This document shows positions 47,295-64,000 of a DNA stretch of 64,000 bases, in pieces. A model generated the notes under the pieces. The model searched no databases. It was not told where the DNA came from and saw nothing but the letters and a program-made list of their open reading frames with translations. Every line of letters starts with the position of its first letter. Positions within the stretch are counted from its first letter, which is position 1. This DNA comes from an uncultured Pseudomonadota bacterium (GTDB lineage: Bacteria; Bdellovibrionota_B; Oligoflexia; Oligoflexales; CAIYRB01): positions 12,172 through 76,171 of the forward strand of contig CAIWTN010000077.1 of NCBI GenBank assembly GCA_903915625.1. Reading direction: 5' to 3'. The position numbers were made by a program, and so were the translations under genes.

Positions 47295-47310
47295 TGGTTC
47301 CGGATTTGCA
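47295..47310 (+). promoter_or_regulatory. Putative sigma54 promoter
   Basis: TGGTTCCGGATTTGCA upstream of 47345. Confidence 0.6.
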
Positions 47311-47344
47311 TCGGGATCATCAGGGTTAAGTGAGGTGACGTTAC

Positions 47345-49045
47345 ATGAATGAAAAAACTAACAATGCGTTCGGGGAGCAAAATCAAAATTGGCACATGGT
47401 CGCTGATTTTCTCAAAACTCCGGATGCCTTTGTTGGGTGCGGCGCACCAGAGTTGATTGAGACGCACATCTCACTCATTTTCCTTACCAAGAACTATGTC
47501 TACAAGTTGAAGAAACCAGTTCGCTTTGATTTCCTCGATTATTCAACGCTACGGGCTCGTAAATATGCCTGTGAGCAAGAAGTGCAACTCAACCGTCGTC
47601 TCGCCGCAAATGTATATTTAAGTGTGCTGCCAGTGACGGTGAGTGAAGGTGGTGCCCTTAGCATCGATGGTGAAGGCGAACCCGTAGAGTGGTTGGTTAA
47701 AATGCGCCGCCTGCCACAAGAGCTTATTTTGGACCACATCTTAGAAGGGCCGCACAAGTTCGGCCTTGATATGAGAAGGCTAGCAGCGACCCTAACAAAT
47801 TTTTATCAGCGGGCACCATCCCTCAACATCAACGCTGAGACCTATGTCCGTCACCTCGGTGAGCACGTGCAGAGTAATCGTCACGAGCTACTACGCACCG
47901 AACATGGACTTCCTGAAGCGCTGATCAAGAGAATTCATGGGCGGCAATTGCAGTTTATTGCTTTTGAGACACCTCTGTTTGCGAAAAGGGTGCAAGACGG
48001 ACACATTGTGGACGGTCATGGTGATCTGCGTCCCGAGCATATTTGTCTTGAGGCAGATCCGGTGATCTTTGATTGTGTTGAGTTTAGTGATGAGCTGCGG
48101 CAAGTTGATACCATCGATGAACTTTGTTTTCTTGCGATGGAATGTGAGCGGCTTGGTTTTCCCGAGTACGGTGACACTGTCATTAATTATTATGCAGAAA
48201 CCAGCGGTGATTTCGCGCCCCAGCGACTCATCGCGTTTTATAAATCATATCGAGCATGTGTGCGGGCAAAGGTAGCTGTGCTGAGAGCACTGCAGTCGGT
48301 AGGTGCGATTCGCGACCATGCAAAAAATCTCGCTCTCAAATACCTAGAAATGGCTGATCAAAGTTTTGGTTGGGCGAGTGCTCCCTTGTGTGTGATTACG
48401 CGAGGTATTGTCGGCACCGGAAAGTCCACTATCGCTAAGGGGCTGGCTGAAATCTTGGGAATGGATCTACTGCAAACGGATGCCTTGCGGCGTCAAATCG
48501 TGCTCGAAGTCCCGCCGCCAGGTTCGTATGGTGTTGGGATTTATCAGGCGGAAAGACGGCGAGAAGTTTACGAGCTTATATTTGAGTTGGCCTCTTCAAG
48601 GTTGTCAGAAAGGATTTCGGTGATTTTGGATGCATGCTTCTTGACTCAAGATCTCCAGCAAAGTGTGCGTTTTTTGACCGAAGCCCTAGGGGTATCATTA
48701 GTAATCATAAACTGTGAATGTCCTAGTGATATTGCCGTTGGGCGCATTATTGCTCGTTCGCGCGACCCATCCTGCTTGTCCGACGCTAAGCCCGAGCATT
48801 TTGCTCAGCAAAACCGAGAAGACGAAGGGATATTACCGGGAGTCGCATCGATCCGAATAGACACGTCGAAAGGGACAACTCAGGGTCAGTTGCGGATGAT
48901 TTGTGAGGCATTACGCCAGGTAGTTTTCGCTAAGCAAAAATCTGACGCCGCTTTCATGAAGGCGTCAGAGGTAGTATCAACGGTTGTTCCCCTGGGAGTG
49001 CCAGAGATGGCGAGCCCCAGAAGCGCAATGGAAAACAAGTCTTGA
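47345..49045 (+). CDS. Aminoglycoside-phosphotransferase-like + P-loop kinase fusion (Rv2004c-like)
   Basis: ETHIS, YKLKKPV.FDFLD, LNRRLA, HGDLRPEH, DCVEF, GIVGTGKST, LDA.F. Confidence 0.88.
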   Translation: MNEKTNNAFGEQNQNWHMVADFLKTPDAFVGCGAPELIETHISLIFLTKNYVYKLKKPVRFDFLDYSTLRARKYACEQEVQLNRRLAANVYLSVLPVTVSEGGALSIDGEGEPVEWLVKMRRLPQELILDHILEGPHKFGLDMRRLAATLTNFYQRAPSLNINAETYVRHLGEHVQSNRHELLRTEHGLPEALIKRIHGRQLQFIAFETPLFAKRVQDGHIVDGHGDLRPEHICLEADPVIFDCVEFSDELRQVDTIDELCFLAMECERLGFPEYGDTVINYYAETSGDFAPQRLIAFYKSYRACVRAKVAVLRALQSVGAIRDHAKNLALKYLEMADQSFGWASAPLCVITRGIVGTGKSTIAKGLAEILGMDLLQTDALRRQIVLEVPPPGSYGVGIYQAERRREVYELIFELASSRLSERISVILDACFLTQDLQQSVRFLTEALGVSLVIINCECPSDIAVGRIIARSRDPSCLSDAKPEHFAQQNREDEGILPGVASIRIDTSKGTTQGQLRMICEALRQVVFAKQKSDAAFMKASEVVSTVVPLGVPEMASPRSAMENKS

Positions 49046-49501
49046 TCAATGAGGGGTCAGAGCAGATACCACTCGTTCGTTCGCGATTTGTCGTGCACTT
49101 ACCTTTGAAAGTGTAGTCAACTCAGTGGCAAAGAGTTCGTACAGATCATCAATTGATACAATTCCGGTCAGATGACCCTGATCGTCAATCACTGGCAAGC
49201 GCCGAATACCAGTCTGCTCAAGCTTACGAGCTGTCTCAAAAAGTCCGTCGCTTTCCTTCGCAACTGTCGGGTTTCGGACCATGATCTCATTTATCTGAAT
49301 CATTCTAGGATCCATGTTGTTAGCCATTACTTTGGTGACCAAATCACGATCGGTGATGATGCCAATTGCTTTTTTGTCTTGTGGTTTTACGACAACAAGT
49401 TCTCCGACGTGTTTGTCTCTCATCAAGCGTGCAGCCTCAGCAGCTGAAACGTCCGATGTTGTACACACTACTGAGCTTTTACACACATCCTTGAGGGCCA
49501 T
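49046..49501 (-). CDS. Tandem CBS-domain protein (Hrp1/Rv2626c-like)
   Basis: AARLMRDKHVG, GIITDRD, IRRLPV, GIVSIDD. Start ATG 49501. Confidence 0.9.
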   Translation of the reverse strand: MALKDVCKSSVVCTTSDVSAAEAARLMRDKHVGELVVVKPQDKKAIGIITDRDLVTKVMANNMDPRMIQINEIMVRNPTVAKESDGLFETARKLEQTGIRRLPVIDDQGHLTGIVSIDDLYELFATELTTLSKVSARQIANERVVSALTPH

Positions 49502-49572
49502 AAAAGAATCTCCCTGAGTTGAAATAAATCGTAGATTGCATTCAATACCAATCAATCAAGTGGGCTACCTAA

Positions 49573-49588
49573 AGCAAATGCTGTGCCA
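49573..49588 (-). promoter_or_regulatory. Putative sigma54 promoter (CBS gene)
   Basis: Minus strand TGGCACAGCATTTGCT. Confidence 0.8.
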
Positions 49589-49622
49589 TAAATTATCTGG
49601 AGTGCGATAACGCGCAGATTTA

Positions 49623-49638
49623 TGGCACGTCGTTTGCT
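49623..49638 (+). promoter_or_regulatory. Putative sigma54 promoter (Hsp20)
   Basis: TGGCACGTCGTTTGCT, consensus. Confidence 0.82.
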
Positions 49639-49728
49639 TGTGAGTAACGGGAATGCATAAGGTTGTATGGATTTTGAAAATGTCCGACCTTATCTTGGTG
49701 TGTGAAAATAAATATTGGGAGACAAATC

Positions 49729-50223
49729 ATGTTAACGGATCTAGTTCCAAGTGGTTTTAGGGCTCTTGCACCGTGGCGCCGTCGTGATGAGTTGGCTGAT
49801 TTTCAGCGAAGTGTGAATAAGCTGATGCGCGACTTCTTTGAGGATGAGCCCGCATTTCTCAGCCAAATTGACGCTGCTGACGTTGGTGCGGCATTTGCAC
49901 CACGGATGGAACTGCAAGAGTACGATGATAAGATCGTCTTGTCCGCTGAGTTACCTGGACTTAGCGATAAAGATGTCGAAGTATCGATAGATAAAGAGGC
50001 ACTTACGGTAAGGGGCGAGAAAAAAGAAGAGAAAGAAACAAAAGGGGTAGGGCGTAGTTTTAGCGAACGTCGCTACGGTGCGTTTGAACGCACGATCCGC
50101 CTGCCGGCATCAGTAGATAAGGATAAAATTTCTGCTAAGTTCGAACATGGCGTTTTGACTGTTGAAGTGCCGAAAACCCCAGAAGCACGCAGAGAAGTCA
50201 AGAAAATCCCAATCAAGCACTAA
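49729..50223 (+). CDS. Hsp20/alpha-crystallin small heat-shock protein
   Basis: AELPGL, LTVRGEK, ERRYGAFERTIRLP, AKFEHGVLTV, IPI. Start ATG 49729. Confidence 0.95.
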   Translation: MLTDLVPSGFRALAPWRRRDELADFQRSVNKLMRDFFEDEPAFLSQIDAADVGAAFAPRMELQEYDDKIVLSAELPGLSDKDVEVSIDKEALTVRGEKKEEKETKGVGRSFSERRYGAFERTIRLPASVDKDKISAKFEHGVLTVEVPKTPEARREVKKIPIKH

Positions 50224-50232
50224 GCTTAAAAT

Positions 50233-50271
50233 AGAGTCCCCGGAACTAGTATCCGTGGACTCTTTTTATTT
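50233..50271 (+). terminator. Intrinsic terminator (possibly bidirectional)
   Basis: AGAGTCC-c-CGGA...TCCG-t-GGACTCT followed by a T-tract, between the convergent Hsp20 and HPF genes. Confidence 0.7.
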
Positions 50272-50295
50272 GGCTGCTTTGGCTAGAATTATATT

Positions 50296-50841
50296 TTATG
50301 CATGAACAGTGCTAGCCTGTGGACCTTTTTCACCGCGCTCTTCAAAAAATCTTACTTTTCGCCCGACTTCCAGATTCTCGAACGGCTTATCGAGCACAGA
50401 ATTTGCGTCAAAATAGATTTCACGATTGTCATCAGTCAATATGAATCCATAACCCTCGTATGGAAAAATTCGTTCAATTTTACCGTCCGCTAGAGCTGGC
50501 TCATGATGTTTAACTTCACCGCGTAATTTTCTGACATAATCCTGCAGAATCCGTTCCATGGCGTCAAAGGCGTCGCGCATAGCTACGTAGACGTCAGAAT
50601 GTGCGTGGTTTTCGGCAGCGTCATTGCTAACTACCAGTCTATCTCCAGGAACATTTAATTCTATCCGAATACGGAATATATTTCCTTTGCGCCGCCGATG
50701 ATTAGACAGCTCAACTACAACTCGCCCGTCTATGATGCGAGGAAAAAGTTTCTCGAGGTGATCAACCCGACGCTTTATGCGCGCCGAAATCGCATCTGAC
50801 GGGGTGATTCCATCAAATTCAATTTGTAGCGGACTTTGCAT
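50296..50841 (-). CDS. HPF/RaiA ribosome hibernation domain fused to cold-shock domain
   Basis: S.AI..RI....LEK, VPG..L, DVYVAMRDAFD; C-terminal GYGFI...EIYF..NSV, G.KGPQAS. Confidence 0.88.
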   Translation of the reverse strand: MQSPLQIEFDGITPSDAISARIKRRVDHLEKLFPRIIDGRVVVELSNHRRRKGNIFRIRIELNVPGDRLVVSNDAAENHAHSDVYVAMRDAFDAMERILQDYVRKLRGEVKHHEPALADGKIERIFPYEGYGFILTDDNREIYFDANSVLDKPFENLEVGRKVRFFEERGEKGPQASTVHA

Positions 50842-50907: not shown

Positions 50908-50923
50908 TGCAAAGAGTGAGCCG
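50908..50923 (-). promoter_or_regulatory. Putative sigma54 promoter (HPF-CSD)
   Basis: Minus strand CGGCTCACTCTTTGCA. Confidence 0.6.
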
Positions 50924-51050
50924 AAGCGTGGTTATGTGCAGCCTGTGGCATTTGCCGCTAAACAGGCAAAAAATTGTCGCAAATTCAGAACAGTGTAATT
51001 TTTTAGCTTCAGTATTTGAAGCGCGCTCAATATTTTCTGGCTTTAGAAGA

Positions 51051-51830
51051 TTAAGACTTTTTAATGAGTGCTAAGATCAGCTCTAGCGCAATTAGGGCGG
51101 TGATCAGCACTTCTAGGATATTGGCCCGGCGGCTGGACACTAGGTTCGCTAAAATTTCGATATTGTCTTGAACTAATGTCAATTTTCTATCTAGGGCGCG
51201 AAAGCGAACGTCAATATCAAAGCATTGTTGTGCTTCTTTAAATAACTTCTGCATGTCATGACTGCGCCAAGTTTCTTCTGGGGGATCAAGTATCGCTAGA
51301 TTGGACACGATGCTTTGCCTAGTACTGGCTGCAGAACCAATAAATTTCAGTAGAACCTTCGCGCTAAGCGGCACAGATCCAATCTTTTCCAGCCTCTGCA
51401 TAAAGTCAGCCGAGTCCCGCAACATACTGTCGGAATTGATTTCGTAAGTTTCGAGAGCTGCAGACTGGCCCACAGTCAATGCGACCATGCTCAGACTTTG
51501 CGGGGTCAATTTCCTCAATTCCACAAAGTCAAAATCGAAACGATCCTGGGTACCGATCTGGATCTGAAACGTCTCAGTAGTGGTGTTAACTACAGTTGGT
51601 CCAAGTACGGATTTTATCTTTCCCATTTCTTCATCAATTTGTTCTTGCGACATATTAAAGAAGACTAGGGCCCCGAATCGATAGACGAAAAGATAACTAT
51701 CATCCCCATACTGAATTTGTAGCTCGGAAGGGCTGCTGTCTATGATGCGTCCGTTAAGAACGGCACGGACCGGCTTGATCGCGATCGAGTGGTAAAGGTT
51801 GTATGCCTGTAGCAGGTAAGTTGCTGACAC
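51051..51830 (-). CDS. RMD1/YagE (DUF155) family protein
   Basis: FVYRFGALVFFN, QSAALE.YE, LDPPEETW, FDI..RF..LDRKL, LEVLI..LIALE. Confidence 0.85.
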   Translation of the reverse strand: MSATYLLQAYNLYHSIAIKPVRAVLNGRIIDSSPSELQIQYGDDSYLFVYRFGALVFFNMSQEQIDEEMGKIKSVLGPTVVNTTTETFQIQIGTQDRFDFDFVELRKLTPQSLSMVALTVGQSAALETYEINSDSMLRDSADFMQRLEKIGSVPLSAKVLLKFIGSAASTRQSIVSNLAILDPPEETWRSHDMQKLFKEAQQCFDIDVRFRALDRKLTLVQDNIEILANLVSSRRANILEVLITALIALELILALIKKS

Positions 51831-51933: not shown

Positions 51934-52581
51934 TTATTCGATCGATAGATTTGTTTCAACCGCTGTCACACCGGGAGCTGCCCAGGCTGCCCATTTTGCA
52001 TCCTGTAATTCTGCCTGGGACCTTACTTTGCCGGTCAGTGTTACTTTTCCATTGACCGTGGCGACCCTGATTCGCTTCGCGTCAGCTTCAGCACTTCGGA
52101 CCAGTGCCTGCTCGATTCGGTTTTTAATATCTGTAGGCTGTGGCCGCTGGTGGATAGCTAGGTGATTTTTTACCTGACGCACTCCTGTTATGTATCTTAC
52201 GGCGGATGTTGCGGCATCACGTTGATATTGCCAATCTACGTCACCACGTAAAATGACATCGCCGTCTTCCACTGAAATTTGAATCGTTGAAGGCAAGCTG
52301 ACATTCCAGCGTATAGCATCAGCAGCTGCCTTGGCGATTTCCTGATCGCTGCGCATACTTGTGCCGGGTAATTTCACTTCTATTTCCTCAGCGACTGCTT
52401 TGACGCCAGCTACCCGGAATGCCGCCTTTTCAGCCGCATATTTATCAGCAAAGCTCGGCACGAACCCGCTTAATGTAACAACACCATCCGCGACCGAGAC
52501 AGCGATATTTTCCGATGAGACACTTGGATCAAAGCTGAGTTCGTCGAGGACATCTTGGCGCATCTCGGTATCCGATTTCAT
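51934..52581 (-). CDS. Triple BON-domain protein (OsmY-like, no signal peptide)
   Basis: I.VSV.DGVVTLSG..RVAGVKAV; three BON repeats; AAWAAPGV..V. Confidence 0.9.
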   Translation of the reverse strand: MKSDTEMRQDVLDELSFDPSVSSENIAVSVADGVVTLSGFVPSFADKYAAEKAAFRVAGVKAVAEEIEVKLPGTSMRSDQEIAKAAADAIRWNVSLPSTIQISVEDGDVILRGDVDWQYQRDAATSAVRYITGVRQVKNHLAIHQRPQPTDIKNRIEQALVRSAEADAKRIRVATVNGKVTLTGKVRSQAELQDAKWAAWAAPGVTAVETNLSIE

Positions 52582-52664
52582 AATAATCCTCCAGTGGCAA
52601 TTGGCACATTAATCAAGTATTTAACTCGCGAATATGAACATCGCACAGCTAACGGCTGATTGGT

Positions 52665-52680
52665 TGCAGGTTCTGTGCCA
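52665..52680 (-). promoter_or_regulatory. Putative sigma54 promoter (BON-RMD1)
   Basis: Minus strand TGGCACAGAACCTGCA. Confidence 0.7.
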
Positions 52681-52784: not shown

Positions 52785-53510
52785 ATGTCTCTGTTTAAGA
52801 ATCGGCGTCAGGCGGGTGAACTGCTAGGCCGGAGCTTGCGGACTCTGCCAGCTCTGCAAGACGTGACAGATATTCAGGTGATTGGACTGCCACGCGGTGG
52901 TGTGCCAGTGGCGTATGAAGTGGCACAAAAAATCGGTACCGGTCTTGATGTGCTTATAGTGCGCAAGCTGGGTGTGCCTGGTCACGAAGAGTTGGCTATG
53001 GGCGCCATAGCCAGCGGCGGTATTCAGGTATTAAATCGAGATGTGGTTGATTCATTGTCAATTTCTGAAAAAGAAATCGAACAAGTCGCTCTGCAAGAAG
53101 AACGCGAGATCTTTAGGCGTAACTCACTTTACCGGGATGGTAAACCGAGGATTAACGTGCGGGGAAAGGTTGTTATATTGGTGGACGATGGACTTGCAAC
53201 AGGATCTACTATGCGTGCTGCGGTCCGGACGTTACGAAATGATCAGCCGAAATTATTAATAGTTGCTGTGCCTGTGGCACCAGCGTCAACTTGCCAACAA
53301 TTACGTCGCGATGTTGATGAATTAGTATGCCTACACACACCCGAAAACTTCCTAAGTGTTGGGTTGTGGTATGACGAATTTGAACAAACCAGTGATGAGG
53401 AGGTTCGTGAGCTTTTACAATCAGCCAAGACGTTGCCTAAGCCGGTTGAAAGCTCGCGTAGTGAAGTTATCTCCACGAAGAATATTCCTAGTGCGGAACT
53501 GCCGGTCTAG
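52785..53510 (+). CDS. Phosphoribosyltransferase-like protein (Rv0571c/Rv2030c N-domain type)
   Basis: F.NR.QAG, LPRGGVPVA, RKLGVPGHEELAMGA, VILVDDGLATGST, FEQTSDEEV. Start ATG 52785. Confidence 0.9.
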   Translation: MSLFKNRRQAGELLGRSLRTLPALQDVTDIQVIGLPRGGVPVAYEVAQKIGTGLDVLIVRKLGVPGHEELAMGAIASGGIQVLNRDVVDSLSISEKEIEQVALQEEREIFRRNSLYRDGKPRINVRGKVVILVDDGLATGSTMRAAVRTLRNDQPKLLIVAVPVAPASTCQQLRRDVDELVCLHTPENFLSVGLWYDEFEQTSDEEVRELLQSAKTLPKPVESSRSEVISTKNIPSAELPV

Positions 53511-53952
53511 CAGCAAGTTCAGCTTGCGCAAGCTCGGATTCCGTTACCAGGTGCTTGATGAAGTCGGATTCTGTCAAAATTCCGACAAGGCGATTACCTT
53601 CGACCACTGGCAGGCAGCCAATTTTGTTCTCCAAAAGTAGCCTCCCTGCATCTGCCAATGGCATCTCCGGTCCGATAGTATCGGGATCTGTGGTCATAAC
53701 ATCCCGTACAAGCATGCCTTTTAATGCATCTCGCTGATCGAGGTACGTTAAATCGTCAAATTCATAAAGAGCGGTTCTTATCAAATCTCGGTGCGAGATC
53801 ACCCCCTCTATGTTTCCCTCGCTATCAATGACTGGGACGTGACGAATCATCCTTTCACTCATCAATGCGTAGACTTCTCCGAGTTCGTCATCGGGAAAGA
53901 CTGTCTCAGGGTTACCGGTCATTAGGTCGCTTACCGTAATGATGTCTTCCAT
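53488..53952 (-). CDS. CBS-domain protein (AcuB-like)
   Basis: IRHVPV, GVISHRD, IGCLPVV, GILTESD. Start ATG 53952. Confidence 0.88.
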   Translation of the reverse strand: MEDIITVSDLMTGNPETVFPDDELGEVYALMSERMIRHVPVIDSEGNIEGVISHRDLIRTALYEFDDLTYLDQRDALKGMLVRDVMTTDPDTIGPEMPLADAGRLLLENKIGCLPVVEGNRLVGILTESDFIKHLVTESELAQAELAARPAVPH

Positions 53953-53986
53953 GCGATTTATCCCCTGTCCTATTAGTATTTGTAAA

Positions 53987-54409
53987 CTAGTGAGCGCGTG
54001 TTTCTTGGCCAAACGCAGTTTTCACTCGCTCAACTAACTGGCCCTGTGTCATATGCGCCGCAGGCTGCACTCCAACTACTTCCAGGGCTGGACCGGCGTG
54101 CTCCTTAAGGTATGCAACAAACCCTGATTTCGCGGGTCCAGGTCCCATTACCAAGATCTCGGCGTCCTGAGGTAGCGCTTTTAAGATACTCTGGTAATGT
54201 CGCTTCCAATCATTACGCCGATTCTCCTCATCCCTAGCACCCGACATTGCTGATCTGTGTGCATATGGGAATTTCCCGCGTACACCGCCCGTAGATTTAT
54301 GACGCCGTTCCGCTTGAGACTCGATTCGATCGATCGAATAGCTATCACTGCTGAGTTTAACTATCACGGCTTCTTTATGGCTTACCCAAATACCGCATCT
54401 TTCATGCAT
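53987..54409 (-). CDS. Small eRF1-domain-2 / host-attachment-protein-like protein
   Basis: GIWVSHKEAVIV, ILVMGPGPAK.GF, A.HMT.GQL. GGAGG RBS before ATG 54409. Confidence 0.65.
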   Translation of the reverse strand: MHERCGIWVSHKEAVIVKLSSDSYSIDRIESQAERRHKSTGGVRGKFPYAHRSAMSGARDEENRRNDWKRHYQSILKALPQDAEILVMGPGPAKSGFVAYLKEHAGPALEVVGVQPAAHMTQGQLVERVKTAFGQETRAH

Positions 54410-54436: not shown

Positions 54437-54452
54437 AGCAATTTTCATACCA
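54437..54452 (-). promoter_or_regulatory. Putative sigma54 promoter (eRF1-like/CBS)
   Basis: Minus strand TGGTATGAAAATTGCT. Confidence 0.7.
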
Positions 54453-54526
54453 AGAACTGAAGCAGGTGAAATGAATCTAGCAGTGCGATATGCCACTCGC
54501 AGCATTCAGTTTTGTTTTAGCAGGAT

Positions 54527-54542
54527 CGGCATGACTTTTGCT
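54527..54542 (+). promoter_or_regulatory. Putative sigma54 promoter (54609-ppsA-hydrogenase operon)
   Basis: CGGCATGACTTTTGCT. Confidence 0.65.
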
Positions 54543-54608: not shown

Positions 54609-55127
54609 ATGAGAAAAAATACAATTCGAATCCTTTTTTTAGGATCAGCTTTATGGGCGGGCGTAGGTGCAGGTGTAGCTTCGGCGGCAGACACCGCGAA
54701 TGCACCTGCCAGTCATGATTGGCCATGCCCGGCAATGGGCAACGGACAGATGATGGGTGCTCAGTGGCTTAGGGAGCTTAAGAGAGAGACTATTGAGGGG
54801 CGGATTGAGGACGTGAATGTGCAAGAGTTTTGTATGGGTGAGCATCATGGGCTACATCTAAAAGTGCGGAGCGGTGACACTACCTATAACGTTCATTTAG
54901 GTCCCACCAATGTTGTCGATGACCGCAAATTTCGCTTCGCTTTGGGCGATGATATTCAGGTACATGGCGCATTGTACGAGGCCAATGGTGAAAAATTCAT
55001 TGTGGCATTTACCATAGAAAAAGGTGGACAAAAGTTGATCTTGCGCGATGAAGATGGTCGACCCACATGGACAGCTGGGCGAGGACGGATGCATGGTCGT
55101 CGAGTTAAATCGGTACCCGCACATTGA
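54609..55127 (+). CDS. Secreted OB-fold-like protein (VHLGP motif)
   Basis: Signal peptide, Met/Gly-rich segment, ETIEG.I, GLHL, VHLGP, GD.IQVHG, LRDEDGRP.W. Confidence 0.75.
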   Translation: MRKNTIRILFLGSALWAGVGAGVASAADTANAPASHDWPCPAMGNGQMMGAQWLRELKRETIEGRIEDVNVQEFCMGEHHGLHLKVRSGDTTYNVHLGPTNVVDDRKFRFALGDDIQVHGALYEANGEKFIVAFTIEKGGQKLILRDEDGRPTWTAGRGRMHGRRVKSVPAH

Positions 55128-55163: not shown

Positions 55164-57590
55164 ATGGCAGCCAGAAGTCAGCAGTCGTACATCCAGTGGT
55201 TTGAAGATATCTGTTACAACGATGTAGCTAGGGTAGGTGGCAAAAACGCCTCTCTTGGTGAGATGTACCGTGAGCTAGGTCAGGATGGTATTACAGTTCC
55301 GCCCGGCTTTGCTGTAACTGTGGACGCATACTGGCGTCATATTGATGGCAATAAGCTTCGCGGTAAGATTGAGGAGCTGTTGACATCTCTATCCAAGCGT
55401 CCAGATGACTTACCAAAAATCGCTGGGGATTTACGCCACCTAATCCTTGAGTCGCCACTTCCCACTGATATTGTCCGTAGCGTCACTCAGGCCTATGAAG
55501 AGCTGTGTGAGCGTTGTGGAGAGCTGGCGGATGTAGCCGTTCGTAGCAGCGCCACTGCCGAGGATTTACCAACTGCGAGTTTCGCCGGTCAGCAGGAAAC
55601 ATTTCTCCATGTTCAAGGTCAAAATGCTCTACTTGAAACGCTGCGCCAGTGCTTCGCATCGTTGTTTACCGATCGAGCTATATCGTACCGAATAGATCAA
55701 AAATTCGATCACCTTAAGGTAGGTCTTTCGGTCGGCATTCAGCGTATGGTGAGGTCCGACCTTGCAGCGGCTGGCGTTATGTTCACCCTCGACACAGAGA
55801 CGGGTGCTAGAGACGTAGTGCTGATCAACTCATCCTACGGACTCGGTGAGACTGTGGTCCAGGGTTCAGTAAATCCCGATGAATTTTATGTATTTAAGCC
55901 CACGCTGCTGCAAGGTAAGAAGGCTATCCTGCATAAGCGCTCTGGTAGTAAAGAGTTCAAACTAGTGTACGACGCCGGCGCTGGAAGACGAACGCGTATA
56001 GAATCTGTGGCGGTGGTAGACCGCGAGCGTATGTCGTTATCCGATGAGGACATTCTACAGCTGTCGCAATGGGCTTGCCGAATTGAAAAGCATTACAGCG
56101 ACAAGCTTGGAGTGCCTACCCCGATGGACATAGAGTGGGCCAAGGATGGTTTAACGGGTAAGCTGTATATACTGCAGGCTCGCCCCGAAACGGTACATTC
56201 GCAGCGAGAAGCGCTGAAGATCGATGTTTATTCTCTAGACGTTGGTGTTCGTGAAAAAGCGAAAATTATTTTGCGGGGGCGGGCCGTTGGGGACCGTATC
56301 GGTGTGGGTGCAGTGCGTGTCATAGATGATCCTCATCATTTAGACCTGCTGCAGCAGGGAGAGGTTTTAGTCGCCCAAAAAACTGATCCTGATTGGGAAC
56401 CGGCTATGAAGCGCGCTGCAGCCATCATTACCGACCGTGGTGGGCGCACTTGCCATGCCGCCATAGTTAGTCGCGAGCTGGGTATTCCTGCAGTTGTGGG
56501 TTGTGAGTATGCCACCTCGTTACTCAAGACAGGCCAGCATGTAACTGTCTCCTGCGCAGAAGGAGATACTGGGACAATTTTCGAAGGTCTACTTCCGTTT
56601 ACACGTCGAGCGGTAGATGCTTCGACACTCAGGCCGACCTTCACAAACATCATGCTTAATGTGGCAAATCCGGACGAAGCGCTGCGTCTTGGACTACTGC
56701 CCAGCGACGGTGTCGGCCTAGCGCGGATGGAGTTTATTATCAGCCATGCGATTAAAGTTCATCCGATGGCTTTGGTAAAATTTGATGATTTTCCAGAGTG
56801 TGAAGAAAAGCGTGAAATCGACAAAATCACTAAGGGATATCAGCGTCGCACAGATTACTTTGTCGATAAGCTGGCTGAAGGCGTTGGGATGATAGCTGCG
56901 GGATTTTACCCACGTGAAGTAATCATTCGCTTTAGTGATTTTAAAACGAACGAATATGCTGGACTTCTCGGCGGTAAATTCTTTGAACCGGTCGAAGAGA
57001 ACCCAATGCTTGGATTCCGCGGAGCCTCGCGTTATTACCATGACCGATATCGACTTGGATTTGCGCTTGAGTGTGCTGCCATTCGACGCGTGCGAGACGA
57101 TTTCGGTCTCACAAACGTCAAGGTTATGATTCCATTCTGCCGTACGATTGCTGAGGGTCGCAAGGTGATCGCTGAGATGGCACAAAATGGTCTCAAGCGA
57201 GGTGAGGCTGGGCTCGAAATTTACGTTATGTGTGAAATACCCAGTAATGTGATTCTTGCTGACGAGTTTTCGGAGATATTTGATGGTTTCTCTATTGGAT
57301 CGAATGATTTAACCCAACTGATCTTGGGAGTTGACCGCGATTCCGAGATTGTGGCCTCACTCTTCGATGAGCGCAACAAAGCTGTGACACTTATGATTGA
57401 AAATGTCATAGAGAAGGCACATGCCAAAGGCCGTAAGGTTGGGATTTGTGGCCAGGCTCCAAGCGACTATCCAGAGTTTGCCAATATGTTGGTACGGTTT
57501 GGTATCGACAGTATTTCGCTAAGTCCGGACAGTTATGTACGTACCGCAAGGATGATTGCACAATTAGAGGAGACTGGCCAAGACCGTTAG
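55164..57590 (+). CDS. ppsA: Phosphoenolpyruvate synthase
   Basis: VGGKNASLGEM, VRSSATAEDLP.ASFAGQQET, GGRTCHAAI, EENPMLGFRGASRY, SIGSNDLTQL, GICGQAPSD. Confidence 0.96.
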   Translation: MAARSQQSYIQWFEDICYNDVARVGGKNASLGEMYRELGQDGITVPPGFAVTVDAYWRHIDGNKLRGKIEELLTSLSKRPDDLPKIAGDLRHLILESPLPTDIVRSVTQAYEELCERCGELADVAVRSSATAEDLPTASFAGQQETFLHVQGQNALLETLRQCFASLFTDRAISYRIDQKFDHLKVGLSVGIQRMVRSDLAAAGVMFTLDTETGARDVVLINSSYGLGETVVQGSVNPDEFYVFKPTLLQGKKAILHKRSGSKEFKLVYDAGAGRRTRIESVAVVDRERMSLSDEDILQLSQWACRIEKHYSDKLGVPTPMDIEWAKDGLTGKLYILQARPETVHSQREALKIDVYSLDVGVREKAKIILRGRAVGDRIGVGAVRVIDDPHHLDLLQQGEVLVAQKTDPDWEPAMKRAAAIITDRGGRTCHAAIVSRELGIPAVVGCEYATSLLKTGQHVTVSCAEGDTGTIFEGLLPFTRRAVDASTLRPTFTNIMLNVANPDEALRLGLLPSDGVGLARMEFIISHAIKVHPMALVKFDDFPECEEKREIDKITKGYQRRTDYFVDKLAEGVGMIAAGFYPREVIIRFSDFKTNEYAGLLGGKFFEPVEENPMLGFRGASRYYHDRYRLGFALECAAIRRVRDDFGLTNVKVMIPFCRTIAEGRKVIAEMAQNGLKRGEAGLEIYVMCEIPSNVILADEFSEIFDGFSIGSNDLTQLILGVDRDSEIVASLFDERNKAVTLMIENVIEKAHAKGRKVGICGQAPSDYPEFANMLVRFGIDSISLSPDSYVRTARMIAQLEETGQDR

Positions 57591-57613: not shown

Positions 57614-58783
57614 ATGTCCAGTGTATCTGATCTTGTTGGTAGGTGTTTTCGAGTCAGTTCTGATGTGCTTGGATTATTGATCAGAACACTCAGAGACGAC
57701 GGATACATTGCGATAGGTCCACGTAAAGTTGGTGAGTCTATTCAGCTAGAGGTCTTAGATAGTGCCGAAGATCTGCCACGAGGCTGGGGTGACCAACAGG
57801 ACGCGGGCACATATCGACTGGTAAGGCGCTCCGACGCAGCTTATTTTGGTTTTAATCTTGGCGCTGATTCGTGGAAAAAGTGGTTGGATCCGAATCGCAA
57901 GCTGCTTTGGCGTGCAAAGCGTGAAGGTGAATCCTGGGAGGTAGAACAGGCGCACACGCAGGTCCGCAGGATGGCCTTCATCGGTGTGCGGGCATGTGAA
58001 TTGGCTGCAATTAAAATCCAATTACGTGTTCGCGAAGTCTCCCGGTTACAATCAAACTCGACTGATACAAATTCATCTGCATTAAGTGCGGAGGTGTCGG
58101 TAGAAGCCCCGGAAGAGCCTTTTTTAGTTGGATTAAATTGCTCTCAGGCAGCCGCAACTTGTTTTTGCGCCTCGGTGCATACGGGTCCAGCTTTCGCTAG
58201 CGGCTGTGACTTGGTACTTACTGAGGTTCTCAATGATGACGATCACTATTTTCTAATTCAGATTCTGACAAAACGGGGCGCAAGAATTTCCTCGCAATTT
58301 GAATTGCAAACATCTATTGCAGATGATCTAGCGCACATAGATCGCCAAGTGGCTCAGGTGTCTGACTCACAATCGCGGCAGCTTAATATATCCAATCCAG
58401 TGGATTTTTTTAGCCGTCGTCTGGAGCACTCTCACTGGGACGATGTAGCAGCTAGATGTTTGAGCTGTGCCAATTGCACCCTAGTTTGTCCAACATGTTT
58501 TTGTTCAACAGTCGAAGATACTAGTGACGTGCAAAACGCGGTGGCCGAACGTTGGTCGCGCTGGGATTCCTGTTTTAATTTGGACTTCAGTTTCATTCAC
58601 GGCGGTAGCTTGAGGTCCTCAACACGCTCCAGGTACCGCCAGTGGTTGACACACAAACTGGGCACTTGGCATGAGCAATTTGGTAGCTCGGGTTGTGTTG
58701 GATGTGGGCGCTGTATAGCTTGGTGTCCAGTCGGCATCGATTTGACTGCAGAGGTTAAATATCTTTCGCAAGCGACGCGATGA
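57614..58783 (+). CDS. Group 3b hydrogenase beta subunit (4Fe-4S; HydB/AsrA-like)
   Basis: [48 protein letters not shown]. Confidence 0.9.
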
Positions 58784-58793
58784 AAGGCGATTT

Positions 58794-59273
58794 GTGGTTA
58801 CTTTACGAACTATAGACAATCTAATTGCAGATCATCCTTTTTTTGCTGGATTGGGCTCAGACTTTGTAACCTTTATCGCTGGCTGTGGTCGCAACCGGTA
58901 CGTCGAAGAGGGTGATTATCTGGCCCACGAGGGAGAGGAGGCGAATGCTTTTTTCTTGATTCGTCGCGGGAAAATATCAGTAGAAACGAATGTCCCTGGA
59001 CGTGGTCCAGTGGTGTTAGAAACTCTTGGCATTGGCGACATTGCCGGCTGGTCTTGGATTTTTCCCCCATATAAATGGGCATTTGATGTAGTAGCCCGCG
59101 AGGCTGCATCTTTTATAGAAATCAATGGTCTATGCCTGAGAGGTAAATGTGAGGCTGATCCGGCCCTTGGGTATGCGGTTTTGAAACGCTTTGCTGGGAT
59201 TATGAGTGAACGACTGAGAGACACTCGGCTCAGGCTCTTGGATCTTTATGGTAACGATCGCAAAAGAAGTTAA
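58794..59273 (+). CDS. Cyclic-nucleotide-binding domain protein
   Basis: [29 protein letters not shown]; no HTH. Confidence 0.85.
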
Positions 59274-60159
59274 TCTCAGCCAAGCTGAGGTACAGCTCAA
59301 AGGTGTAGTTGCAGGCGCCGGCGATCAGTATTTGCCAGTGGCATATTCTGTTACATCTAGGAAGCGGGAGACTGCTGATACTGTAACTCTGACTCTTAAA
59401 CCAAAAGACTCTAGATCTTCTGTTTGCCCACGCCCCAGGCCAGGTCAGTTTAATATGCTGTATGTGTTCGGGGTTGGGGAGATTCCGGTGTCAGTTTGTG
59501 GAATTGAGCCAGACGGTGCGCTGCTACATACAATCCGCCGCGTTGGTGCTGTATCTGTGGCCCTTTGCGATTCCAAAGTTGGCACCGTTATCGGTGTCAG
59601 AGGTGCTTATGGCGTGGGTTGGCCTGTCGCAAGAATGAGACAACGGTCGCTAATTATTTTGGCCGGAGGCCTTGGTTTAGCCCCATTGCTTATGCTGATT
59701 CGGCACGTGGTGCGTTGCCGTAGCGATTTTGCTGATATTACCATCTGTATCGGTGCTCGGACACCACAGGATGTACCATTTTTAAGAGAAATTCTTAGTT
59801 GGCAACGTTTGAAATACGATGCTGGGCTCTTCGACGTTCGGTTGATTGTCGACCGGGCTGATCGCGACTGGCGTGGCGAGGTTGGGGTAGTGACTTCACT
59901 TTTACCACGGTCTTTGACTGCACCAGAGTGCAGTTTAGCGCTGATATGTGGACCGGAAGTAATGATGCGACATGCAGCGAGTGACTTAGTGCGACTTGGT
60001 CTAAGCCATTGCGATATCTATCTGTCTTTAGAGCGAAATATGAAGTGTGCCTTCGGGCTGTGTGGGCATTGTCAGCTCAATAGGTACTTTGTTTGTCGCG
60101 ATGGTCCAATCTTTTCGTTTGAAAAAGTTGAATCATTGCTGAATGTGAAGGATCTATGA
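59248..60159 (+). CDS. Group 3b hydrogenase gamma subunit (FAD/NAD(P)-binding, 2Fe-2S)
   Basis: [46 protein letters not shown]...VC.DGP. Confidence 0.9.
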
Positions 60160-60968
60160 CGCGCCGTCGAGCTCAAAAAAAATTGGCAGTCTGGAAATTT
60201 GCCTCATGCGACGGCTGTCAGCTTAGTCTACTCGACTGCGAAGATGAACTTTTGCACTTGGCTGGGCGTATTCAGTTCGCCCATTTTATGGAGGCGAGTA
60301 GTGCGTTATTGCGCGGACCCTACGATCTATCGATCGTGGAAGGCTCTATCACAACACCGAGGGATGTTGAGCGTATCTTAGAAGTTAGGCGGCGGTCAAA
60401 GTTCCTCGTAACGGTAGGTGCTTGTGCAACTGCCGGAGGGATTCAAGCGCTCCGCAATTTTGCTGATGTCAAAGAATTCATTTCTATAGTTTACGCAAGA
60501 CCTGAATATATTGAGACTCTAACCCAGTCGACGGGTATTGCCAATCATGTCCACGTTGACTATGAATTGCGCGGATGCCCTGTCAACAAACGCCAACTTC
60601 TCGAAGTGATTGTTGCCTTTCTAGTGGGGAGGCGGCCAAATATTCCGGCTGAAAGTGTTTGTGTCGAGTGCAAGGAGCGTCGCACCACTTGTATTGCTGT
60701 CGCGCAAGGGGTTCCCTGTATGGGACCTGTGACTCAAGCAGGCTGCGGTGCTATTTGCCCAGCCTATGGCCGGGGCTGCTATGGCTGTTTTGGGCCCAAG
60801 GAAAAAGCCAATGTCGATGCACTAGTCGCGGATTGGCGCCTTAATAAAAGCGTGTCAGAGGATCAAGCACGCAGGCTACTGCATACATTTAATGCGTGGG
60901 CCGAGCCCTTTCGCAGTGCAGGTTGCAGTCCTGGTGTGGGACCTATCAGGAAGGATCTTTGTGACTAA
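60156..60968 (+). CDS. Group 3b [NiFe]-hydrogenase small (delta) subunit
   Basis: [48 protein letters not shown]. Confidence 0.92.
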
Positions 60969-62298
60969 GAGTGCAATCAAAACAAAAACCATCAAGGTTA
61001 ACTATCTGGCTCGAGTTGAGGGAGAGGGTGCCCTGTTGGTGCGCCTGCGTGGTCAGGACGTTGAGGATGTGCAGCTAAAAATATTTGAGCCGCCGCGATT
61101 TTTCGAAGCGCTTTTGCGCGGCCGTAGTGTGATGGAAGCCCCCGATATTACCGCTCGGATCTGTGGTATTTGTCCCATTGCGTATCAAATGAGTGCAGTT
61201 TACGCGGTGGAGCAAGGCCTGGACGTGATGGTACCCCCGCCGATTCATGATCTTAGGCGCCTACTCTACTGCGGCGAGTGGATCGAAAGTCATGCACTAC
61301 ATTTGTTTATGCTGCATGCACCAGATTTTCTTGGGTATCCAGATGCGGTTGCAATGGCGAAGGATCATGCGCAGAGAGTTGAGCACGGTCTTGCAATTAA
61401 AAAATCAGGCAATGCAATCGTATCCTTAGTCGGTGGTCGTGAGATTCATCCTATCAATGTGAAAGTTGGCGGTTTTTACGGACTTCCAAGTAGGCGTGAG
61501 CTCAACCTGTTAAAGGATCAGCTCAGTAGCGCTCTGGAAATAGCAATTGCTAGTACAATCTGGGTTTCTGGTTTCGACTTTCCGGACTTTGATCGCAGTG
61601 TGGTGTTAGTCGCGTTGCGTTCGACTGATGAATATCCGATGGCCCGTGGTCGTATTGTGTCTAACCACGGGTTTGATCTTCCCGCCAAAGAATTTGACAA
61701 TTTTTTCGAGGAAATTCACGTCCCCTATACCACTGCACTACATTCCGTTGTCAAAACAGAAAAAGGTGGCGGGGCATATTTGACTGGTCCGTTGGCACGT
61801 TATGCAATCAATCGGCAGTGGCTACATGGTCGGGCCGGGGAATTGACGCGGTCTCTGAATTTAGGGTCCGTCGTCACCAACCCGTTCAAAAGCATCGTTG
61901 TTCGTGGCATCGAAATTGTTCATGCCATCGAGGAGGCTATCAGGATTATTGAATTATACGAGGATACAGCTATAGCGAGTGTCGGCGTTAGGCTGCGTGC
62001 CGGACAGGGATGTGCAGCGACAGAGGCTCCGCGAGGGCTACTTTATCACCGCTATACATTCGATGCGGATGGCATTATTTCTGATGCCAAGATAGTGCCG
62101 CCAACGTCTCAGAATCAAAAGTCGATTGAAGATGATTTGCGCAGGTTGCTGCCAAGTTTTATTGGTCTGCCTAAATCTCAGATGACACATTTGTGTGAGC
62201 AAGCCATTCGGAACCATGATCCGTGCATTTCCTGCGCCACACATTTTCTGAGGCTTGAGTTCGACTCGGTCGCAAATGACGGCATGGGAGACTTATGA
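60961..62298 (+). CDS. Group 3b [NiFe]-hydrogenase large (alpha) subunit
   Basis: [16 protein letters not shown]1 RICGICP, EAPRG, L2 DPCISCATH plus C-terminal extension. Start GTG 60961. Confidence 0.93.
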
Positions 62299-62777
62299 CA
62301 GTGCTATTAATCGGTATGGGAAATGTTTTTCGTGGTGACGATGGAGCGGGTCCCATGTTCGCTCGTCGCTTGCTGTCACGATTTAATGCTGAAGAGCACG
62401 CTGATTTTGAATTTGAGGTTCGTGAATCCGATGGTTCATCATTTTCTTTAATAGATCTTTGGCGGGGTTGGGAGACAGTGATGGTGGTGGATGCCTTAAT
62501 AGACGCATCAAGACCTCCTGGACAGATTCTCTGCATCGACGGTTTGCGGGAGGATTTGCCATGGGACCCGTTGAGTGTATCGACGCATGCCTTTGGTCTA
62601 ATTGAGGCCATAAAACTCTCTCGCGTGCTGGCGGTGCTTCCAAAGAAATTACAGGTGATAGCGATTGTGGCAGAGAGCTTCGCTATGGGCGATGGGCTTA
62701 GCCCATCCGTAGATCAAGCAATCGACGTGCTGGTCCAGCAGTGGCCGAATCCGGTTTTTCAAACGGTTCAGCGATGA
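62295..62777 (+). CDS. Hydrogenase maturation protease
   Basis: IGMGN..RGDDGAG, VVDA, STH.FG. Confidence 0.92.
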   Translation: MTVLLIGMGNVFRGDDGAGPMFARRLLSRFNAEEHADFEFEVRESDGSSFSLIDLWRGWETVMVVDALIDASRPPGQILCIDGLREDLPWDPLSVSTHAFGLIEAIKLSRVLAVLPKKLQVIAIVAESFAMGDGLSPSVDQAIDVLVQQWPNPVFQTVQR

Positions 62778-62801
62778 AAATATCAAGGAGGGCGGGGAAG
62801 C

Positions 62802-63068
62802 ATGCATGAATCCTCAATTATTCATAACTTAATTAATCAGATCAGAGCATTAGCTAATCAAGAAGGTGGTGGGCGCATCGTAGGCGTAAAGGTTCGATTT
62901 GGTGCCTTGTCAGGAATGTCTCCTGAGCATTTTCGCCGGCATTTTATTGCCGTAGCTGATCATAGCATTGGGTCAGATGTAGTGCTGCACATGGAATCAT
63001 CTCAGGATATTTACGATCCTAACGCAACGGCTATCGTTTTGGATGGAATTGAAATTGAGACGAATTGA
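62802..63068 (+). CDS. hypA: HypA-like nickel chaperone lacking zinc-finger
   Basis: N-terminal MHE Ni motif, GALSG.SPEH; no CxxC. Confidence 0.75.
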   Translation: MHESSIIHNLINQIRALANQEGGGRIVGVKVRFGALSGMSPEHFRRHFIAVADHSIGSDVVLHMESSQDIYDPNATAIVLDGIEIETN

Positions 63069-63092
63069 TTATGAAACCAAGTTGAGTTAACT

Positions 63093-64000
63093 GTGCGCGT
63101 GCGATTTAAATTAACGGTAGAGGGTAGAGTTCAAGGTGTGGGATTTCGTCCCTATGTGGCAAAGCTCGCCTCTGAGTTAGGCCTCGGAGGGTCGGTATAC
63201 AATTCCCGTCGCGGTGTTGTCATTGAAATCGAAGGTTCTGAATTCGCGACCGTGACATTCATCGAGAGACTAAGAGCCATACCACTGCCTGCCATTATTA
63301 ATTCTATTGGTAGTGAAACACTGCCGAAAAAAGGATCATCTGCATTTAATATATTGCGTAGCGATGTCCGTGGCAGTGGATCAACGCTTATTCCAGTCGA
63401 TTTAGCTCCCTGCAGTGAATGCTTAGGGGAGATGTTAGACCCTCGTAACCGGCGCTACCTGTATCCGTTCATCACCTGTGCTAAATGCGGACCTCGATTC
63501 AGCATATTACGGGAACTGCCTTTTGATCGTGCAAGGACGTCGATGGCTGCCTTTACGACTTGCCCGGACTGTGCAGGTGAGTATGCGGATCCGCAAAGTC
63601 GGCGCTTTCATGCCGAGACTATTTCTTGCGGTAAGTGTGGCCCCCAAGTAAGACTGGAAAGTTCTCAGAAGGAGGTGTTGGCTACAGGTCTTAGTTCGAT
63701 TCATCAAGCAGTGGAACACTTGAAGAAGGGCGCCGTCGTGGCGTTTAAAGGTATCGGCGGATACCAATTATTGGTAGATGCCTCAAATGATTCTGCGATA
63801 GATCGTCTTCGCATCAGCAAGCACAGGCCAGGTAAGCCATTAGCTGTATTGTTTCCCTCACTCGATTCGGTATCGCAGTATTGTGAGGTTAGCGAGGAAG
63901 AGGCCAAGGTTTTGTTATCGATGCAGCGACCGATTGTACTGTTGGCAAAGCGCTTGGAAACAAACAGTGATTGCATCAGCCATCTAGTGGCTCCCTACTC
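63093..64000 (+). CDS. hypF: Carbamoyltransferase HypF (runs off the window; not in ORF track)
   Basis: Manual translation: GRVQGVGFRP, PVDLAPCSEC, RRYLYPFITCAKCGPRFSI, CPDC..EY.DP.SRRFHA, KGIGGY. Confidence 0.93.
   Translation, partial: MRVRFKLTVEGRVQGVGFRPYVAKLASELGLGGSVYNSRRGVVIEIEGSEFATVTFIERLRAIPLPAIINSIGSETLPKKGSSAFNILRSDVRGSGSTLIPVDLAPCSECLGEMLDPRNRRYLYPFITCAKCGPRFSILRELPFDRARTSMAAFTTCPDCAGEYADPQSRRFHAETISCGKCGPQVRLESSQKEVLATGLSSIHQAVEHLKKGAVVAFKGIGGYQLLVDASNDSAIDRLRISKHRPGKPLAVLFPSLDSVSQYCEVSEEEAKVLLSMQRPIVLLAKRLETNSDCISHLVAPY

Follow-up and report, generated by a model that had tools for sequence, protein, structure and literature searches.

A predicted sigma-54-dependent survival island in an uncultured freshwater bacterium and a candidate oxygen relay for its control

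Genes of the kinds that belong to the mycobacterial DosR (DevR) dormancy regulon are gathered in a stretch of DNA from an uncultured freshwater bacterium (genome G000; 4,423,967 bases, 96% complete), and they raise the question of which promoters and which signal govern them. The stretch, which we call the window, comprises 64,000 nucleotides (nt) of contig C77, and the gene cluster in question, the island, occupies its part from 45.8 to 64 kb. A previous reading made from the letters alone (the sequence-only reading) had proposed that a DosR-like survival toolkit is driven here by sigma-54 and an enhancer-binding protein (EBP) encoded outside the window. Mycobacteria are not known to possess sigma-54. 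Our analysis favors, with a probability of about 0.6, a stress or low-oxygen survival island that is placed on sigma-54 promoters and switched by an oxygen relay encoded elsewhere in the genome.

Sigma-54 promoters of the island

Seven GG-N10-GC sites were confirmed by reading five intergenic regions. Each is oriented towards its gene. The stretch from 47.2 to 55.2 kb has eight transcription units, all but one of them preceded by such a site, as the sequence-only reading had claimed in saying that nearly every unit is covered. Minus-strand sites are named here by their high coordinate, where the earlier reading used the low one (49588- is 49573..49588). The sites were compared with the consensus TGGCAC-N5-TTGCW, to which two are perfect matches, one has one mismatch and four have two, and they were scored with a 26-column matrix trained on 71 promoter-context sites, all outside the island. 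The perfect sites lie on opposite strands, 35 nt apart, and face CBS-pair gene 1 (49573..49588, minus strand, TGGCACAGCATTTGCT, score 21.9) and the Hsp20 gene (49623..49638, plus strand, TGGCACGTCGTTTGCT, score 18.3). Three more sites are strong: that of the unit encoding a 140-aa protein and CBS-pair protein 2 (54437..54452, minus strand, TGGTATGAAAATTGCT, 15.6), that of the unit running from a 172-aa protein gene into phosphoenolpyruvate (PEP) synthase and hydrogenase genes (54527..54542, plus strand, CGGCATGACTTTTGCT, 15.0), and that of the BON/DUF155 unit (52665..52680, minus strand, TGGCACAGAACCTGCA, 14.6). The remaining two are weak, one before the gene of an APH-like/AAA_33 kinase (47295..47310, plus strand, TGGTTCCGGATTTGCA, 10.6) and the other, with CGGCTC as its -24 element, before the gene for HPF-CSD, a fusion of a ribosome hibernation factor with a cold-shock domain (50908..50923, minus strand, CGGCTCACTCTTTGCA, 8.5). 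An eighth site, absent from the sequence-only reading, precedes the PolX gene (45819..45834, minus strand, TGGCCCGAAAGTTGCT); it has one mismatch and scores 18.7.

These sites could be followed in L003, a metagenome-assembled genome (MAG) labelled 'Proteobacteria bacterium' that is 90% identical at the nucleotide level over 16 kb. GG and GC were kept at all seven sites, with the flanks diverging. The sites 49588-, 49623+, 54452- and 54527+ are invariant, and the weak 50923- is fully invariant between diverged flanks; 52680- shows a spacer change only, and the weak 47295+ is nearer to the consensus in L003 (TGGCTC, score 13.7). The PolX site is kept as well.

Taken loosely, as TGG-N10-GC, the pattern showed no enrichment in the window: it occurs 174 times where 151.7 +/- 12 occurrences were expected, a count attained by 4 of 100 shuffles. 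What carries the case is therefore the extended consensus together with the context. A search of G000 for the full consensus yielded 27 matches without a mismatch, 213 with one and 1167 with two; a promoter context was found for 16 of the 27 perfect matches, two of which are in the island, and 194 sites in the genome score at least 14. A crude map of open reading frames (ORFs) leaves about 9% of the genome non-coding. An oriented site scoring at least 14 occurs in 60 of 2303 upstream regions, and one scoring at least 8.5 in 115 of 2303. Against this background the binomial tail is 6e-7 for at least five of eight units and 6e-9 for at least seven of eight. The matrix scan against the genome, a check that the sequence-only reading had named, placed the island as the top 8-kb window at a threshold of 14 (five sites) and at 10 (eight sites); at 12 it was tied with one other window. 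All sites lie upstream of the start codon, at 19-89 nt from the ORF start as called (counted from internal Met starts, the distances for CBS1 and Hsp20 come to about 70-90 nt), and the predicted leaders measure about 60-80 nt for CBS1 and Hsp20 and about 25 nt for the kinase gene. Matches resembling sigma-70 promoters were fewer in the region than in shuffles (6 against 11.2 +/- 3.5), and an Rfam scan of the region gave no family match. From these comparisons we consider it very likely that the island is under sigma-54 control.

The genome encodes the machinery that such control would need. A complete rpoN with AID, CBD and DBD Pfam domains was found at C90:58418-59890; its absence was named in the sequence-only reading as grounds for giving up the idea. 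Eleven EBP genes were detected (Sigma54_activat, E 2e-48 or better), none of them on C77, as had been expected of an activator encoded outside the window. Together with the promoters conserved in relatives, rpoN and the EBPs support the interpretation of a survival toolkit driven by sigma-54 and an outside EBP. Eight EBPs have a receiver domain, one has PocR, and two have no sensor domain (C87, C150); in the EBP of C163 no helix-turn-helix (HTH) was detectable, and in those of C59 and C94 the GAFTGA motif reads GSFTDA and GAFTNA. A 912-aa ORF at C213:6431-9166 encodes a second, atypical protein with a sigma-54 DNA-binding domain: a Sigma54_DBD-like domain (residues 45-191, E 1e-15) is followed by AAA_16, and core-binding and activator-interacting domains are absent. 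The close relative G001 gave only one PF04552 match, and Sigma54_DBD matches were obtained in 4 of 14 control genomes, Corynebacterium not being among them. Besides those of the island, G000 is predicted to have roughly 100 sigma-54 promoters. Pfam analysis of the first genes of 60 of these returned flagellar rod, FliK, three CBS-pair, OsmC, KatG and DksA-like proteins, among others.

A scan with the 566-aa kinase of the island yielded 50 related loci, from which the wider distribution of the sites could be judged. At L004, in a genome assigned to the same genus and with a kinase 55% identical, there are nine sites scoring at least 12 in 17.5 kb. Gene order differs from that of the island, and among the L004 sites are those preceding the orthologous kinase and Hsp20 genes, a stand-alone cold-shock gene, the 140-aa protein gene and, directly, the ppsA-hyh (PEP synthase-hydrogenase) genes. 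At the stand-alone cold-shock gene (10422-10568, minus strand) a sigma-54 site and a palindrome are kept; an apparent site at 10669+, which overlaps a palindrome and faces no gene, was judged spurious. The Pirellulaceae MAG L018 has five sites, before phosphoribosyltransferase (PRTase), PRPP-synthetase operon, DksA-like, PolX-like and nitroreductase genes. At the remaining 47 loci, the number of sites scoring at least 12 is zero in 36 cases, one in nine and two in two; many of these loci still neighbor PRTase, HPF, Hsp20, CBS, PpsA, PolX or hydrogenase genes. rpoN was present in all five genomes tested, including one Microbulbifer and one Gemmatimonadota whose loci lack sites. The kinase gene was found in 7 of 41 genomes (40 sampled relatives and G000), namely G000, four of the seven other genomes of its genus and two from another family (f3) of the same order, and in G011 and G012, of the same genus, a close divergent pair of sites stands beside it, as at 49588/49623.

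A palindrome shared by island promoters

Each island intergenic region contains one 16-bp palindrome (AGTGnCATATGnCACT), an element that the present analysis adds to the earlier picture. Expectation-maximization (EM) on the six unique intergenic regions, with divergent pairs counted once, gave the consensus aGTGncATATgnCACt and a log-likelihood of 41.1, compared with 21.7 +/- 1.7 in shuffles (maximum 24.7 in 30), and the second-best palindrome of each region scored 4.1 at most. The best copy (AGTGCGATATGCCACT, 54482..54497) is centered 37 nt from both divergent TGGs and forms a conserved block in L003. Another, AGTGCGATAACGCGCA (49601..49616), lies between the two perfect promoters, 14 and 20 nt from their TGGs, and has one change in L003. 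The copy CGCGTCATAAGCCACA (47239..47254), again a conserved block in L003, is centered about 48 nt upstream of the TGG of the kinase promoter, and TGTGGCATTTGCCGCT (50944..50959), kept in L003 between diverged flanks, about 29 nt upstream of 50923-. Two copies fall within leaders: AGTGGCAATTGGCACA (52593..52608), invariant in L003, within that of BON and ahead of the PRTase gene, and the last, detected by EM at 45770..45785, within that of PolX and so past the promoter. Thus all five of the copies checked in L003, that is, all except the PolX copy, were kept.

We then trained a matrix on four island copies and searched with it the 100 nt that precede each non-island sigma-54 promoter. Of 104 such promoters, 9 had a copy scoring at least 11. 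Among upstream windows taken as controls the figure was 12 of 1166, and among shuffles 0.35%. The tail probability was calculated as 1.5e-6 for the nine promoters, and as 1e-4 on a count of seven unique palindromes. The scores were bimodal, with none between 9.9 and 11.9, and at five unique sites the palindrome is centered 36-37 nt from the TGG. The targets are a gene for a 144-aa protein without assigned function (C110), an operon encoding DksA-like, dienelactone hydrolase and NAD-binding proteins (C185), a gene without assigned function beside a gene for a tandem universal stress protein (USP) (C231), a promoter on C124, a CBS gene with an acetyl-CoA hydrolase/transferase gene (C250), and three of the four promoters of C156. 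One of the two tandem-USP genes of G000 (C231:19692-20816, plus strand) has a sigma-54-like site of its own (19681+, score 12.6) and no palindrome. A motif picked out by eye, GTGCGAT, failed correction for multiple testing (best 6-mer p 4.6e-4, 1084 tested); it is half of the palindrome. We tentatively regard the palindrome as the binding site of a single activator, an assignment for which we would offer slightly less than even odds.

A candidate oxygen relay on other contigs

The palindrome occurs at only 1 of the 11 EBP loci, the one formed by contigs C250 and C156, which adjoin as judged by synteny in a close relative (L155). The locus starts with a CBS pair and, divergently, a CoA-transferase and a hybrid kinase of receiver-HisKA-ATPase architecture. 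It continues with a PAS-HisKA-ATPase kinase and a receiver-only protein, and divergently from these a kinase-like protein and the EBP; a protein without assigned function, a weak cytochrome c'-like ORF and another CBS pair complete it. There are six sigma-54 sites in about 9 kb (those of C156 are 1898-, 2030+, 4634+ and 6370+), and the relay is predicted to be autoregulated from these promoters of its own. The EBP (C156 2864-4612; L076) has 582 aa and the architecture REC-AAA+-HTH_8, with a low-complexity linker of about 125 residues before the HTH. In the hybrid kinase (L155:3636-4844, corresponding to the end of C250 and the start of C156), the receiver Asp, HATPase_c and the H-box SSHEIKN are present. 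The PAS domain of the C156 kinase matched 14 PDB entries at E 1e-8 or better, 13 of which are haem-PAS sensors (FixL, DosP, YddU) and one an unnamed multi-sensor kinase; E against the FixL haem domains was 6e-17. A His aligns with the proximal His of FixL, and both it and the Arg that comes next are kept. The NtrC-type EBP of this locus is our candidate for the island activator, a proposal whose prospects we judge to be a little short of balanced. Much the same can be said of the signal, for which oxygen acting through the haem-PAS relay is a candidate at slightly below even odds.

Should both proposals hold, the system would work as follows. The FixL-like haem-PAS kinase would sense a fall in oxygen, or in some other haem ligand or redox signal of a related kind, and would feed the EBP through the receiver-HisKA-ATPase hybrid kinase, with the receiver-only protein alongside. 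The phosphorylated EBP, bound at the palindromes, would remodel the closed sigma-54 complex. The expected outputs are a chaperone, a factor for ribosome hibernation, energy sensors of the CBS type and a module of PEP synthase and NAD(P)-hydrogenase for redox balancing, and the relay would also induce itself, given that the EBP's own sigma-54 promoter carries the palindrome.

The closest precedent, in our view, is not DosR but the NmpRSTU system of Myxococcus xanthus, which the sequence-only reading did not name. According to the part of the published account used here, the haem-dependent protoglobin kinase NmpU phosphorylates a receiver-HisKA-CA hybrid, NmpS, and the receiver protein NmpT, and at low oxygen NmpS phosphorylates the NtrC-like NmpR (PMC11841059). 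The boxes bound by NmpR are tandem GCGCA-N5-TGCGC elements 14-15 bp apart, its sigma-54 targets comprise its own operon (whose first gene encodes a CBS protein), nmpU, USP, cbb3 oxidase and hemN-hemerythrin genes, and the authors compare the hypoxia induction with that of mycobacterial dormancy USPs (PMC11841059). Compared by architecture with the system so described, the C250/C156 locus is a close match: it encodes a sensor kinase, a hybrid kinase of receiver-HisKA-CA architecture, a protein consisting of a receiver only, and an EBP of the NtrC type, with predicted sigma-54 promoters at the signaling genes and CBS genes adjoining. The two differ in the sensor (a FixL-like PAS in the C156 kinase, a protoglobin in NmpU), in the receiver protein (one receiver domain here, two in NmpT), in the motif (a single AGTGnCATATGnCACT here, tandem boxes for NmpR) and in the extra kinase-like gene without an H-box His at C250/C156. 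Hsp20, HPF-CSD, the APH-like kinase, PolX and the PEP synthase/hydrogenase operon are effectors beyond the NmpR regulon as given in that account, whereas a cbb3 or hemN link, present there, was not seen here. With FixL itself the likeness is that of the PAS domain, as a predicted haem sensor; the partner at C156 is not a FixJ-type regulator.

The likeness to DosR lies in the kinds of genes. Entries in the excerpted table of the DevR regulon include the Rv2005c-Rv2004c operon, Rv2626c, hspX, Rv0571c and Rv0079, the last called a 'probable cytoplasmic translation factor' (PMC3177182); Rv2004c is credited with phosphotransferase activity (PMC8701281), and the M. smegmatis hydrogenase Hyd3 (msmeg_3931-3927) is induced by low oxygen and adjoins a cluster homologous to DosR-regulated genes (PMC2799521). 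To the extent of these excerpts, the DosR facts from which the sequence-only reading argued stand. Its naming of individual proteins after Rv genes fared less evenly: it holds at the family level, and for Rv2004c and Rv0571c it goes back to annotation and Pfam only. The CBS pair matched Rv2626c structures at E 3e-10, as ranks 15-16 of 34 CBS structures; Hsp20 and the PRTase resemble DosR members at the Pfam level, and for Rv2004c the likeness consists only in the shared phosphotransferase annotation. As far as the excerpts go, both systems combine a CBS pair, Hsp20, a translation or hibernation factor, a group 3b-type hydrogenase and proteins of the Rv2004c and Rv0571c types; the regulator stands below haem-based kinases there and below a putative haem-based kinase here, and divergent promoter pairs share sites in both. 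DosR differs in being a NarL-type activator that uses sigma-70-class promoters and Dev boxes, in contrast to the sigma-54 and AAA+ EBP of the island, and the window is without the USP and nitroreductase genes of the DosR regulon.

Our literature search on sigma-54 and group 3b hydrogenases, in sources available in part, found no link such as that seen here, and a search on sigma-54 with DosR and dormancy found nothing relevant. Hydrogenase and small heat-shock protein genes driven by sigma-54 and an EBP are known from FhlA-hyc/hyp, HoxA-hox and, in E. coli, ibpB. The hydrogenases under FhlA and HoxA are group 4, 1 or 2 enzymes, and the signals are formate or H2. The island and its relay might be described as a compact NmpRSTU variant, convergent with DosR, in which a haem-PAS kinase acts through a hybrid kinase on an EBP that drives, as one sigma-54 regulon, most of the mycobacterial-type dormancy toolkit, the hibernation/cold-shock fusion, PolX and the PEP synthase/group 3b hydrogenase operon included. 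The EBP would act from a single promoter-proximal palindrome whose center stands only about 40-75 bp before the transcription start, a distance too short for ordinary DNA looping; we consider this fuller description rather unlikely to be correct in all its parts.

A number of observations weigh against the reading of an island switched by the C250/C156 relay. The relay and the island are on different contigs, and the island-EBP link is therefore by shared motif only. There is a single palindrome copy per promoter, centered about 14-48 nt from the -24 element in the four copies that are upstream of it, those of PolX and BON being downstream of their promoters; going by the typical figures in the part of the report consulted, most EBP enhancers are further from the promoter and more numerous than this (PMC11841059). 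The palindrome was not detected when the corresponding promoters of three further congeneric species (G009/L004, G011 and G012) were searched, and EM on seven promoter regions of the L004 species (six from L004, one from L156) gave no more than shuffles, yet the EBP orthologue where the palindrome is absent is still 68% identical overall and 73% over the C-terminal HTH stretch. The EBP itself has GAFTDA in place of GAFTGA, a variant conserved in its G001 and G002 orthologues, and in the PAS domain the FixL distal Arg aligns with a Leu. The kinase-like protein co-transcribed with the EBP (C156 2087-2860, plus strand; L157) has an Asp for the H-box His (ADNIRNP; ADHINNP in G002), with its ATP-binding motifs intact; because the His is absent and these motifs are intact, it may be a pseudo-kinase. 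In the island, the PRTase unit has no conserved sigma-54 site, and two of the seven sites (10.6 and 8.5) are unremarkable taken alone. The candidate PRTase site at 52653 (plus strand, score 5.8) was rejected, as it is destroyed in L003.

These points bear unequally on the explanations that compete with the relay. The one that would dispose of the promoters altogether, by taking the island sites for chance matches or for non-productive sigma-54 binding of the sort mapped inside E. coli genes, strikes us as very improbable. It could draw on the unenriched loose pattern and the two weak sites, and one study is said to have found widespread intragenic sigma-54 binding. The island sites, however, are all intergenic, oriented and at promoter distance, with the binomial probabilities given above; they are kept while flanks diverge in L003, and they recur at orthologous L004 genes despite the reshuffled gene order. 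More serious, although we still hold it to be improbable, is the possibility that the promoters are real but belong to a general starvation, stationary-phase or energy-stress regulon under another EBP or EBPs. The set of Hsp20, HPF, BON, CBS and DksA-like proteins would suit any growth arrest, KatG and OsmC genes also have sigma-54 sites, the EBPs of C87 and C150 have no sensor domain, and relatives of the same genus keep the promoters without the palindrome. Against this, the C156 EBP locus is the only EBP locus to share the island palindrome and encodes the FixL-like haem-PAS kinase, and the hydrogenase, PEP synthase and CoA-transferase point to low-oxygen metabolism.

A rival that we rate a shade higher, while still thinking it unlikely, concerns the palindrome itself, which might be the operator of a separate dimeric repressor or co-regulator, the EBP binding elsewhere or acting without DNA binding. 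Copies that are single, and very near or downstream of the promoter, would be natural for such an operator; the GTG-N8-CAC geometry resembles that of CRP-type sites, and at least one EBP (C163) is without a detectable HTH. A CRP/FNR regulator was sought for this role, but no HTH_Crp_2 domain above the cut-off was found in G000, whose completeness was noted above. The palindrome is, moreover, tied to sigma-54 promoters (9 of 104, as against 1% of controls), and TGT-N10-ACA is also the site geometry of a known EBP, NifA. On balance we retain the reading of an island on sigma-54 promoters under the C250/C156 relay.

Should that reading be right, the locus would be a concrete case of regulon rewiring. 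At the family level, the set of small heat-shock protein, hibernation factor, CBS proteins, APH-like kinase, PRTase and NAD(P)-hydrogenase is a group of recurrent neighbors in proteobacterial-labelled, Gemmatimonadota, Polyangiaceae and Planctomycetota MAGs. The regulatory input of this persistence gene set appears to be lineage-specific, with sigma-54 sites in the present genus and the Pirellulaceae MAG and not at the Microbulbifer and Gemmatimonadota loci. The sigma-54 oxygen regulon known from Myxococcus would then reach a far wider range of effectors, fermentative hydrogen metabolism among them, and the promoters and palindromes form a defined set, eight promoters in the island and about nine elsewhere.

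Genes of the island

Protein families in the window were assigned with Pfam and NCBIfam, and the CBS pair was also searched against PDB structures; the start codons of the CBS1, Hsp20, PRTase and 140-aa ORFs were adjusted from the translations. At the left end, on the minus strand, is the gene for a PolX-family DNA polymerase with a PHP domain (43958..45745), intact in the window; in L003 PolX is a 25-residue remnant (6371-6445), with the upstream sigma-54 site kept. Between PolX and the rest of the island lies a gene for a 398-aa leucine-rich-repeat protein (45892-47088, minus strand) without a sigma-54 site of its own. The 566-aa APH-like protein with an AAA_33 domain, called Rv2004c-type in the sequence-only reading, is encoded at 47345..49045 on the plus strand, and its homologues are named 'aminoglycoside phosphotransferase family enzyme/predicted kinase' in source records. 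G000 also has a 348-aa paralogue of its N-terminal phosphotransferase-like part (C21:9915-10889, minus strand); neither this paralogue nor the corresponding genes of three further congeneric genomes have a correctly oriented sigma-54 site nearby.

CBS-pair protein 1 (49046..49501, minus strand, start taken at Met19 of the ORF) is followed by the Hsp20 small heat-shock protein (49729..50223, plus strand, start taken at Met10) and by the ribosome hibernation factor (S30AE) with its C-terminal cold-shock domain (50296..50841, minus strand). The cold-shock domain occupies the place where long HPFs usually carry a dimerization domain. The genes for a DUF155 protein (51051..51830, minus strand) and a triple-BON, OsmY-like protein (51934..52581, minus strand) are separated by a 103-nt gap, from which co-transcription is probable. 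Next come the PRTase-domain protein (52785..53510, plus strand), CBS-pair protein 2 (53488..54012, minus strand) and the conserved 140-aa protein (53987..54409, minus strand), which has an orthologue in L004.

Rightwards from the 54527+ promoter, the first gene encodes the 172-aa protein (54609..55127, plus strand). Neither this nor the 140-aa protein has a family match, and no credible candidate emerged for either when the Pfam threshold was relaxed to E 0.1. PEP synthase (pyruvate, water dikinase) follows at 55164..57590 on the plus strand (NCBIfam NF005057, 1148 bits, cut-off 598), and then a four-subunit NAD(P)-linked [NiFe] hydrogenase (57614..62298, plus strand). ShyA (3e-81), ShyD (1e-48) and HydB (5e-28) are the best NCBIfam matches among its alpha, beta and delta subunits, and the gamma subunit matched AsrB (6e-50), then cytochrome-c3 hydrogenase gamma (5e-47) and, slightly lower than AsrB, HydG (7e-39) and ShyC, all below the equivalog cut-offs; from the sulfhydrogenase Hyd/Shy matches, which are best but below cut-off, the enzyme is probably of group 3b type. 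Maturation genes for a HycI-like protease, HypA and HypF occupy 62295..64000 on the plus strand, HypF running off the window. Because the genes from 54609 to the hyp genes overlap or are separated by gaps of 10-36 nt, a single long operon from the 54527+ promoter is plausible, comprising the 172-aa protein, PEP synthase, hydrogenase and hyp genes. Between the hydrogenase beta and gamma genes there is an ORF of 159 aa (58794-59273, plus strand) for a protein with a cyclic nucleotide monophosphate-binding domain and without an HTH, and a protein 64% identical is encoded at the same place in L004.

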